A stretch of 32,000 nt of DNA, taken from positions 30,001 through 62,000 of the forward strand of contig DAOVER010000006.1 in the NCBI GenBank assembly GCA_030668875.1, written 5' to 3'. The notes beneath the pieces were generated by a model. That model saw only the letters and a list, made by a program, of their open reading frames with translations. It was not told the origin of the DNA and searched no databases. This stretch comes from Candidatus Heimdallarchaeota archaeon (lineage in GTDB: Archaea; Asgardarchaeota; Heimdallarchaeia; Heimdallarchaeales; Heimdallarchaeaceae). A program made the translations under genes and the position numbers. Positions within the stretch are counted from its first letter, which is position 1, and each line of letters begins with the position of its first letter. Shown in pieces: positions 3,972 to 5,977 of this stretch.

Positions 3972-5912
3972 ATGTCTTCCGTTTCTTCTCAAGTACTGAA
4001 ACAACAAAACATAGTTGTGCGCACCTATCAGATGGGTGTCAAGTTTCCAGGAACTAGGGAGGAACGAAGAGCATTAGAACGAGAAGCTAACCAACGGATT
4101 AAGGGATTACAAGTTCAACAAGAAGATATCATTAGAGACAAGGTAGCGGTTCAAGCAGCTTTAGAACTTGCGAGGACAGACTATCACAAGAATCCCAAAT
4201 ATGCAATTTCTAAAATATCAAAAGTTACCAAAAACTCAAGAAATATAGCTGTAAGTGCTTACAATAGTCTGTTCACTGCATCAAAAATCACTGTAGGTAA
4301 AGAAAGAAAAGTTGCAGATTTTTTTAGCATGTTGTTGAACATGCCTGAACGAGCTATTGAATGGTTCGTTTTTGGGCGCAGCCCCATCTTAGAAAACTAC
4401 TTGGTTAAAAAATGGGAAGTTTCCCGTATTTATATTATTAATTTCATCCATGGATTAAGGAGACAATTTGATAAAATTTGCTCATCTAATCTAAAGTATA
4501 ATTCCAGTCTACCTCTTCTATCTCAAAAAGAAGTGGAAAAATCTATCAACGTTTGTTACAAGAAGAAGTGTAGAGATTTAACTACACCTGAGCTAATGAA
4601 GAAGACAGAGAACTTCGTTCTGATTCTTCGAACTCTTCAAGCAAATACAGACATTATAGCTCCGTTTCTTACTTCTTGGATAAACACTGTTCATTCTTCC
4701 CGGTGGAAGAGTATGGAAAAACTACGGAATGAAATAGCTGAAGCATTGGGTAGTAAAAACAGAAGTCTATTTTCTGCATTAAGGACGATCATAGTCTTCG
4801 CACTCTTTCCAAATTTAGGAAAGACTGTTCATGATTTGATACAAAAAGCTCAACCAGAGAGATTAATTAATCCGCCATTTAAACGAAAAAAGAAAGGAAG
4901 AAGACCCATATTACTACTAATGGGAACTAGACATATTGTTATGAGACCAGGAGATGCAAATTATATGACCTTCTTAGCTAAAGCTGATGGTAGGTTTGAT
5001 CTAAGTTTCCTTCTGAAAAATCATCCAAGGATAATAGGGGAACTGATTTTTCCAAAAAGAGTAAGGGAATACCTAATAAATGGAGCGAAAATCAGATGTC
5101 TAAGTATAAGAAGTGAACAAGCCCCAGGATATAAGATACGGGTTTATGCATTTCTTGAAGGACCAGAAGAAGTCTTCTTAAACTATAAACTAGTTAAAGA
5201 GTTTCTAAAAGTCATTAAAGTTTCAAAAACCGATTTTGTTGGTTTAGATGTTAATCGTATAGGAGAACATATGTTAGCACTATCGAATGAAGTGAGATTG
5301 CCTAAGAGATTCAAAGTTCTTTTTGAGAGATATAGAATGTTAGACAAAAAAAGGATGCCAGAACTACACTTTAGTTTAACATGCAAAGCAAAACAAAAGA
5401 AAATAGCAAGTTATTATAAAACAAAAGGAGAACTTAATCGAATTTACAAACGAAAAAGAAACATAGTTAAAGAGATAAGAAACCTCATACCACACTTTCT
5501 TGCAGCTGTTATAATCAAGAGCCAATGTAAAGTATTCTTTATGGAAGACATAGAATATAACCCAAAAGGCAAAAAAGGAGCACTCGCAAAAGCAATTAAA
5601 AGTATGCCAAAGAGTATAAGTTTGTTTGAAAAAGCAACTGTATTGGCATCAAATATGCTTGGATATAAAGTACAATTAGTGACAGTTGATCAAAGAGGAA
5701 CAAGCAGGTATCATAACAAATGTGGTGGAAAGATAGAGAGAGACCCGAGGAATCACTATGATAGAGCACCATGTAAAAAATGTGGAAAAAAGGTAAATAC
5801 ACACACAAATGCAGCAAAGAATATTGTAGAAAAAGGACTCAAAAAATTAAAATCACAATATCGCTCCTCTCCGCATACGAGGAGTTTGGGGACACCCAAT
5901 AAGCAGAACTAA
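3972..5912 (+). CDS. tnpB: Large TnpB/Cas12-like RuvC RNA-guided nuclease family protein (646 aa)
   Basis: N-terminal VVRTYQM (WED-like), PFKRKK, RuvC-I FVGLDVN (D426), RuvC-II FFMEDI (E525), VDQRGTS, zinc ribbon H581-x2-C584...C601-x2-C604, RuvC-III region NTHTNAAKNI (H611 at the usual Asp position). Confidence 0.85.
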   Translation: MSSVSSQVLKQQNIVVRTYQMGVKFPGTREERRALEREANQRIKGLQVQQEDIIRDKVAVQAALELARTDYHKNPKYAISKISKVTKNSRNIAVSAYNSLFTASKITVGKERKVADFFSMLLNMPERAIEWFVFGRSPILENYLVKKWEVSRIYIINFIHGLRRQFDKICSSNLKYNSSLPLLSQKEVEKSINVCYKKKCRDLTTPELMKKTENFVLILRTLQANTDIIAPFLTSWINTVHSSRWKSMEKLRNEIAEALGSKNRSLFSALRTIIVFALFPNLGKTVHDLIQKAQPERLINPPFKRKKKGRRPILLLMGTRHIVMRPGDANYMTFLAKADGRFDLSFLLKNHPRIIGELIFPKRVREYLINGAKIRCLSIRSEQAPGYKIRVYAFLEGPEEVFLNYKLVKEFLKVIKVSKTDFVGLDVNRIGEHMLALSNEVRLPKRFKVLFERYRMLDKKRMPELHFSLTCKAKQKKIASYYKTKGELNRIYKRKRNIVKEIRNLIPHFLAAVIIKSQCKVFFMEDIEYNPKGKKGALAKAIKSMPKSISLFEKATVLASNMLGYKVQLVTVDQRGTSRYHNKCGGKIERDPRNHYDRAPCKKCGKKVNTHTNAAKNIVEKGLKKLKSQYRSSPHTRSLGTPNKQN

Positions 5913-5977
5913 GCACGCGAAAGTGTTTAGAAAGCTTCATAGTATGCGAGGCATAGCCGCTTTGCTAACAGGCAAAG
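5863..5977 (+). ncRNA. Putative omegaRNA-like structured guide-RNA scaffold overlapping the 3' end of the TnpB-like gene
   Basis: Stems 5863-5869/5879-5885, 5886-5890/5895-5899, 5901-5904/5934-5937 enclosing 5909-5916/5923-5930, and 5960-5965/5972-5977. Loop CGCATAC (5872-5878) is perfectly complementary to GTATGCG (5942-5948). 58/120 G+C in 5861-5980 versus AT-rich flanks; G-U pairs favour the + strand. Confidence 0.6.

Follow-up and report, generated by a model that had tools for sequence, protein, structure and literature searches.

What is the folded RNA into which a TnpB-like gene of a Heimdallarchaeota archaeon runs at its 3′ end, and which nucleotides does it present as a guide? The question arises from a 32,000-nt stretch of Candidatus Heimdallarchaeota archaeon contig DAOVER010000006.1 (positions 30,001–62,000 of the forward strand; hereafter the window), in which a sequence-only reading had proposed that a compact, pseudoknot-capable RNA overlapping the stop codon of the TnpB-like gene (P0001; 3972–5912, plus strand, 646 aa) was an omegaRNA scaffold. 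We found that the folded RNA almost certainly serves a TnpB-type RNA-guided protein as its guide-RNA scaffold. The complete explanation, in which 5863–5949 is the omegaRNA-type scaffold of the TnpB-like protein and the adjoining 5950–5969 is presented as a guide that is both fixed and tRNA-derived, we regard as quite probable.

On the plus strand, the scaffold (5863–5949) forms an H-type pseudoknot with three inserted hairpins. The P1 hairpin (5863–5885) pairs GCTCCTC (5863–5869) with GAGGAGT (5879–5885), and its loop holds the 5′ strand of a 7-bp pseudoknot (CGCATAC, 5872–5878), whose 3′ strand (GTATGCG, 5942–5948) is the last structured element ahead of the guide position. Between the two strands lie P2 (5886–5899; 5886–5890 with 5895–5899), P3 (5901–5937), closed by AAGC (5901–5904) and GCTT (5934–5937), and, inside P3, P4 (5909–5916 with 5923–5930), within which the stop codon TAA (5910–5912) falls. 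Read from the coordinates, the order of elements is that of a classical H-type pseudoknot: a 2-nt linker joins P1 to a second helix of 7 bp, and the long loop returning from there carries P2–P4. All stems of the sequence-only reading, as well as the long-range CGCATAC/GTATGCG pairing, were present in the sequence. RNAfold yielded –41.4 kcal/mol for 5855–5985, compared with a shuffled mean of –27.1 (z = –4.45), and 0 of 200 shuffles were equally stable. The G+C content previously given, 58/120, was reproduced for 5858–5977 and amounted to 57/115 for 5863–5977, against 34.5% window-wide. No further convincing conserved stems were revealed upstream of P1 by RNAalifold (260 nt), and neither an array nor repeats of the clustered regularly interspaced short palindromic repeat (CRISPR) type were found in the window.

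Comparison of 71 homologous loci allowed us to examine the fold for covariation. Set A2 comprised 19 sequences from the window's clade and intermediate clades, while set A3 consisted of 52 copies of IS607-type paralogues. Most of the genomes are metagenome-assembled genomes (MAGs) and the GTDB representatives are interrelated, so that counts across genomes are not independent. In A2, 89% of the cells paired, compared with 31–43% when partners were slid, and compensatory changes occurred in 17 of 31 pairs, values that were reached by 0 of 500 shuffles. In A3, 95% of the cells paired, compared with 22–43% for slid partners, and compensatory changes affected four pairs of the pseudoknot and five of P4. 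P1 was paired in 92.5% of the cells of A2 (with two compensatory pairs) and in 99.7% of those of A3. Within A2, all five pairs of P2, six of the eight pairs of P4 and three pairs of the pseudoknot exhibited compensatory changes, P3 being nearly invariant. P2 was confined to the tRNA-linked clades, that is, the window's group, with no equivalent in the IS607-type copies (A3), and P4 was absent from three relatives (L021, L023 and L024). Covariation in two independent sequence sets thus supports the predicted helices P1, P2, P3 and P4 and, in both sets, the long-range pairing of the pseudoknot.

The 3′ end of the scaffold was defined by the mobile paralogues. High conservation marks the 3′ block of the 52 IS607-type copies; right after the 3′ pseudoknot strand (...CATAACGTGCGT) all similarity is lost, and unrelated sequence follows. 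Because conservation stops at this point, we took 5949 as the last nucleotide of the scaffold and 5950 as the first of the guide position; on sequence grounds, the drop is taken as the omegaRNA scaffold/guide boundary. This placement contradicts the proposal that the guide starts after 5977. Likewise, the fifth stem of the sequence-only reading (5960–5977, plus strand; CTTTGC, 5960–5965, with GCAAAG, 5972–5977), which overlaps the 3′ half of the guide segment and its flank, lies beyond the family-wide conservation boundary and was removed from the scaffold; a comparable hairpin occurred only in some of the closest relatives and not in the 58% subclade. The suggested 2-bp extension of the pseudoknot, and with it a pair of alternative conformers, found no comparative support either: the extension needs position 5950, which varies between G, C and T without a compensating change.

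A covariance model of the scaffold (R1) detected exactly one copy in the window's own genome, and nhmmer did likewise. The model gave one strong match per genome, covering 19 of the 23 genomes of the genus; two other genera were hit in both of their genomes (2/2 each), and the 36 genomes from three other families of the class gave no match. A metagenome scan with the 3′ scaffold motif returned one true member among the matches listed. We also noted an orphan, degenerate scaffold of the window type (L227, ~2650–2790; G026:C110:19203–19290) that has lost P1 and is still followed by a tRNA-Cys-type 20-mer; it resides on the same contig as the intact orthologue L009, 8 kb apart.

The omegaRNAs of TnpB originate from the 3′ end of tnpB, and a pseudoknot joins their own 3′ end to the scaffold; they are defined by a combination of three features (PMC13565253; PMC10278001). 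As this combination requires, the RNA of the window is located at the 3′ end of a tnpB-like gene, has a covarying structure and brings a pseudoknot strand directly against a segment that is variable in mobile copies. On account of these three features we assigned it to the known omegaRNA class, of which it is a new, family-specific member. The idea of a pseudoknotted, omegaRNA-type scaffold that overlaps a gene encoding a TnpB-fold protein at its 3′ end was thereby upheld, by covariation and by the structure matches described below.

The 646-aa protein carries D426, E525 and H611 at the three RuvC positions as well as a zinc ribbon. Matches to TnpB/Cas12f profiles were weak and located in its C-terminal third, with an E value of 5e-7 for Pfam PF07282 and 40 bits for NCBIfam guided_TnpB, under the cutoff of 100. 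An AlphaFold2 model built on 20 homologues reached a mean predicted local distance difference test score (pLDDT) of 84, and its best Foldseek matches were Cas12f, TnpB and Fanzor2 (down to E 2.5e-9); according to the model, the protein has a TnpB/Cas12f fold. Residues 631–646, which are translated from P1, P2 and P3, were disordered in the model (pLDDT < 50), and the position of the stop codon within the conserved RNA differs between clades. Both findings bear out the earlier suspicion that the tail of the protein is read-through of the RNA. H611 aligns with the catalytic RuvC-III Asp of CnCas12f1. Rearrangements that put His in place of the RuvC-III Asp have been described for several branches of TnpB, which are believed to stay active (PMC10691335); as D426, E525 and H611 are invariant across fixed and mobile clades, H611 is no special mark of the window copy. 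A TATA-like box (TTTATATA, 3941–3948, plus strand) could be read directly in the sequence ~25–30 nt ahead of the ATG, and a TTTA(A/T)ATA motif occurs at equal distance from the ATG in homologous loci. From this we infer that the box is the archaeal promoter of the TnpB-like gene.

A protein search yielded 73 homologues, of which the named ones belonged to Heimdallarchaeota MAGs with the exception of one labelled Thorarchaeota, and a scan of one genome per species revealed 78 loci, often several per genome. A quick family tree, midpoint-rooted without an outgroup, showed two groups: a shallow, bushy one (35 members, ~39% identity to the window protein) and a deep one (16 members) that includes the window. 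In many loci of the shallow group, a gene with MerR-type helix-turn-helix (HTH) and Resolvase domains, that is, a serine recombinase TnpA, is situated directly upstream. The elements of this group have a sharp left end, AC(C/T)GT...CAACTG, and terminate in ...GTGCGT; judged by gene content and ends, the shallow-group paralogues are IS607-type insertion sequences. With nhmmer, at least 25 copies of the shallow-group scaffold were detected in the window's genome (e.g., C95:100737–100820 and C48:38766–38849), many of them at contig ends, 60–340 nt away. The IS607-type insertion sequence is a main cause of assembly breaks in this genome (G000), and because most of its copies are cut off, the protein search gave just seven own-genome matches.

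The window copy is of another kind. Of the features that define IS607 elements, namely an adjacent serine recombinase TnpA, defined ends and multiple copies, all are found in the 39%-identical paralogues and none in the window copy, which is single-copy in its own genome and from which tnpA and the left-end motif are both absent. In most orthologous loci the downstream neighbours are tRNA-Cys, a metallo-β-lactamase-fold gene and a Ras-like GTPase, joined in some loci by TPR and GNAT genes, and orf1605 recurs upstream. The identities of the neighbours (51–98%) bracket that of the TnpB-like protein (56–85%). The ratio of nonsynonymous to synonymous substitution rates (dN/dS) of the TnpB-like gene was 0.10–0.15, with dS from 0.6 to >2, which shows the gene to be under purifying selection. 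To judge from synteny, copy number and these rates, the window copy is not mobile and represents a transposase-less, vertically inherited sister lineage of the IS607-type elements.

A variable, flank-derived guide, as is characteristic of omegaRNAs, was found in the 52 IS607-type paralogues; in the window clade the 20 nt after the scaffold are conserved instead. This segment (5950–5969, plus strand), whose conservation and origin the sequence-only reading had overlooked, is a same-strand copy of about nt 8–27, the D-arm, of tRNA-Cys. Its identity to distant orthologues is 70–85%, compared with 74–80% for the scaffold, while the next 30 nt are at the shuffled level. The tRNA-Cys gene itself (GCA anticodon; 6006–6081, minus strand; called by ARAGORN and Rfam) is convergent with the TnpB-like gene and accompanies every orthologue examined; in all orthologues but L068, a minus-strand tRNA-Cys begins ~55–80 nt downstream of the scaffold end. 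A 17-nt core of the window segment is identical to the tRNA-Cys gene of the orthologous locus L011. Moreover, the segment varies as a D-arm does, with GCAT followed by 6–7 variable nt and then TTTGCTAA, and several of its loop variants recur as tRNA-Cys D-loops in other genomes. Sequence comparison thus suggests exchange between the guide segment and tRNA-Cys D-loops, for which we offer no explanation.

Two further ideas about this segment were dropped. Self-avoidance of the guide, in the sense that it never matches the tRNA of its own genome, was indistinguishable from chance in 10 genomes by an estimate from distances. As to viral targets, the 13 matches of the 17-nt core in viral contigs were about as many as expected by chance according to a rough estimate, and several of them were ordinary tRNA D-arms in non-Asgard viral contigs. 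Elsewhere in the window, 20852–20943 gave an Rfam tRNA match (53 bits, 92 nt) without an ARAGORN call and may contain an intron.

Fragments of other tRNAs occupy the guide position in further transposase-less lineages. In a 3′ type linked to tRNA-Asn, the guide position holds a degenerate sense copy of the 3′ part of the tRNA, and an intact tRNA-Asn gene lies directly upstream of the open reading frame (ORF), tRNA and copy forming attachment-site-like direct repeats of ~30 bp. In the tRNA-Ser lineage it is an antisense copy of the tRNA 5′ end together with the promoter region; in the tRNA-Pro lineage, an antisense copy of the anticodon arm, with the intron of the resident gene located exactly at the edge of the match. 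Finally, in a 5′ type of tRNA-Asn (L243), the antisense 5′ half of the tRNA adjoins the scaffold without a gap. Compared with the tRNAs of the window genome, the tRNA-Asn and tRNA-Ser guides exceeded 60 of 60 shuffles. A conserved or tRNA-like flank was present in 0 of the 52 IS607-type copies. Pairing between guide and tRNA at the RNA level was ruled out as a general rule, as the 3′ type of tRNA-Asn is sense-oriented. It has been reported that tRNA genes are integration hot spots in Heimdallarchaeum and that one provirus lies between a tRNA and a "host transposase" (PMC8813620), which we take as a lead only.

Some details of these lineages are recorded here in their own right. The minus-strand tRNA-Pro gene (TGG) at L021:4824–4922 is interrupted at 38/39 by an intron of 22 nt, exactly at the border of its match to the guide of the neighbouring scaffold, and L231 shows this feature too; an intronless version of the L021 gene would run directly into that match. 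A conserved ~45-nt element is present 90–155 nt downstream of the scaffold in two further loci (L023:5108–5150 and L024:4998–5045); it contains a near copy of the guide of the lineage and received no tRNA call from ARAGORN or Rfam.

Ahead of the TnpB-like gene, a short ORF (3593–3763) encodes 56 aa with a basic N-terminus followed by a hydrophobic helix, reminiscent of a pilin/archaellin signal; it is conserved at this place in L009, L010, L011 and L022 (51–60% identity). A long intergenic hairpin (3836–3894; arms GGAGCTAGCAA... and ...TTGTTAGTTCC, loop ~36 nt) is conserved in the orthologous loci L009 and L010, and there is a resemblance between its 5′ arm and the beginning of the D-arm of tRNA-Cys.

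The following model would connect these elements. The guide RNA would be cut from the 3′ end of the TnpB-like gene's own transcript, and its P1 loop would pair with the 7 nt just ahead of the guide so that P2–P4 sit in the long connecting loop. The scaffold would be held by the protein, and the ~20 nt at 5950–5969 would be offered for base-pairing with DNA. On this model the family stems from IS607-type insertion sequences of the Heimdallarchaeia, whose guide is given by whatever lies beside the right end of the element; in the window lineage the guide is fixed and copies part of a nearby tRNA gene, the tRNA-Cys D-arm. A conserved, tRNA-derived guide in an immobilised copy is unusual and lacks an explanation.

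A number of results weigh against this model. With regard to the RNA, Rfam returned only tRNA matches (whole window at the gathering threshold; 5700–6100 at E up to 10), and neither RAGATH-18 nor any other Rfam omegaRNA family matched the scaffold at E up to 10; by the same token, no unrelated Rfam family, a possibility the sequence-only reading had considered, laid claim to the fold. With regard to the protein, the third catalytic residue is His instead of Asp, and nuclease activity is therefore not certain. Mismatches and an indel of 2 nt separate the guide segment from the window's own tRNA-Cys (the resident D-loop being 2 nt longer), and no second match to the 20-mer was found in the window's own genome (92% complete) at ≤3 mismatches. 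In addition, the middle 6–7 nt vary within the window clade, including one indel, which is unexpected for a guide locked on one fixed target. The variable middle and the missing target together argue against a simple fixed-target guide. Lastly, no target-adjacent motif (TAM) was conserved in the 20 nt upstream of 52 independent left ends (≤0.11 bit per position), among them L002:723, L028:2212 and C15:30712. Published IS607 TnpBs have G-rich TAMs, and their elements end in GG. The left-end ACYGT itself was considered as a TAM and rejected, as by eye it fitted the sequences beside resident tRNA copies inconsistently. A conserved or tRNA-like flank was present in 0 of the 52 IS607-type copies.

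Other explanations have to be measured against the same data. The window copy might have been exapted for the benefit of the host as an RNA-guided DNA binder in the manner of TldR, or as a nuclease, with a role in regulation or in guarding the tRNA-Cys locus and with the 20-mer as its true fixed guide. This would suit a syntenic, single-copy gene without tnpA and with a dN/dS of 0.10–0.15, the conserved guide and the His at RuvC-III, and there are precedents in TldR (PMC10705468) and in Cas12k elements with private tRNA-gene guides (10.1101/2021.02.06.429022). However, the His is common to the actively multiplying IS607-type paralogues and hence no mark of domestication, the genome contains no matching target (≤3 mismatches), and the resident tRNA-Cys differs at 2–8 of 17 positions. 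Furthermore, the tRNA is the sole partner gene conserved across the tRNA-linked clades, and the window's neighbour proteins have no syntenic counterpart outside the tRNA-Cys clade. We thus consider such a host function unlikely.

We entertain only tentatively, and with little confidence, that the transposase-less elements, whose guide is always a piece of a tRNA gene, are tRNA-directed, RNA-guided homing or addiction systems that cut tRNA alleles still carrying the guide sequence. A resident tRNA would escape by D-loop changes, by indels or by an intron at the edge of the match. Several observations would fit: guide variants reappear among the tRNA-Cys D-loops of other genomes and in no case in that of their own (10 genomes; compatible with chance), the tRNA-Pro intron at 38/39 lies on the edge of the guide match, and one scaffold abuts half a tRNA-Asn gene.

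Alternatively, the 20-mer could be no guide at all, but the remains of a tRNA, left behind when an attachment site was duplicated long ago and kept as a D-arm-like hairpin or as a processing signal. Its conservation pattern is indeed that of a tRNA D-arm (GCAT, 6–7 variable nt, TTTGCTAA), and attachment-site-like direct repeats of ~30 bp flank the whole element in the tRNA-Asn and tRNA-Ser lineages. Yet the 20-mer matches the guide of the mobile paralogues exactly in position and length, its potential stem has merely 3 bp, and the sister lineages hold fragments of different tRNAs and of different tRNA parts in both orientations, for which a guide slot is the better fit. A mere remnant is also disfavoured by the conservation of the segment, which equals that of the scaffold across saturated synonymous divergence. 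We therefore rate this origin as quite unlikely.

It is very improbable that the 3′ block acts chiefly at the DNA level, as the site at the right end on which the IS607-type serine recombinase works, with an incidental RNA fold: the block of the mobile clade does end exactly at the transposon right end, and IS607 elements carry subterminal repeats for TnpA (PMC13565253), but compensatory changes preserve pairing in four helices and the pseudoknot, which a protein-binding DNA site would not need, and the block stays under constraint in tnpA-less lineages across dS > 2. We give hardly any credence to a 3′ mRNA element for stability, termination or translation control without guide function. The fold does overlap the stop codon, and an A-rich stretch and a convergent tRNA come after it, but the same architecture stands at the right ends of mobile elements with unrelated flanks after it, the place of the stop codon within the structure shifts from clade to clade, and TnpB/Cas12 guide RNAs are typically recognised by a pseudoknot beside a variable segment (PMC13565253).

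A guide-RNA scaffold with a tRNA-derived guide, the interpretation we prefer, shares features with several known systems. Like the omegaRNA (reRNA, e.g., of ISDra2) of IS200/IS605 TnpB, the RNA is encoded on the same strand as tnpB, overlaps its 3′ end and closes with a pseudoknot strand directly beside the guide, which in IS200/IS605, as in the mobile paralogues here, is the DNA flanking the transposon right end. In contrast, the present scaffold is compact (~87 nt) and shows no sequence or Rfam similarity, the transposase of the paralogues is a serine recombinase rather than Y1, and the protein is ~250 aa longer in its N-terminal helical part, with His as the third RuvC residue. As in IS607 TnpB systems with RAGATH-18, the paralogues are multi-copy, have the MerR-HTH and Resolvase TnpA directly upstream and lack terminal inverted repeats; unlike these, they show no RAGATH-18 match, have AC(C/T)GT... 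and ...GTGCGT as ends instead of GG and exhibit no G-rich TAM upstream of the left ends, and the window copy is devoid of tnpA.

Like TldR, the window copy is related to TnpB, lacks a transposase, is inherited vertically and has a guide that is conserved. It differs in that the catalytic positions of the window clade equal those of the mobile relatives, so that RuvC is not inactivated in comparison with these, in that no promoter target was found in its own genome (≤3 mismatches; 92% complete), and in the tRNA origin of the guide. The private guides of type V-K CRISPR-associated transposons (CAST; Cas12k), directed against tRNA attachment sites, offer another parallel, combining a TnpB-derived protein, a fixed tRNA-gene guide and a locus beside a tRNA, with varied tRNAs involved; here, however, Tn7 genes and a CRISPR repeat are both absent, and the guide follows the omegaRNA scaffold without interruption and is mismatched to the resident tRNA. 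By analogy, the arrangement may also be compared with free-standing homing endonuclease genes, in which a nuclease gene lies beside a conserved gene, the recognition sequence comes from the neighbour and the resident allele differs, except that recognition would be RNA-guided and that cleavage and homing are hypothetical in our case.

The locus provides a compact, covariation-backed scaffold for an uncharacterised TnpB family that has a large N-terminal part, is restricted to Heimdallarchaeia and has no Rfam model, and it supplies the scaffold and guide boundaries that testing of the system needs. It also presents a TnpB that appears to have settled in the chromosome for good and to use copies of tRNA-gene sequence as guides; a large TnpB/Cas12 census does not mention tRNA in its main text (PMC10691335). 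Should homing take place, it would amount to RNA-guided, intronless homing in a natural cleave-and-rescue arrangement, and would directly support the notion that introns and fragmentation protect archaeal tRNA genes from mobile elements. If the guides are functional, they would constitute a new exaptation or a new mode of homing for OMEGA systems, and could connect RNA-guided nucleases with the evolution of tRNA genes in Asgard archaea.

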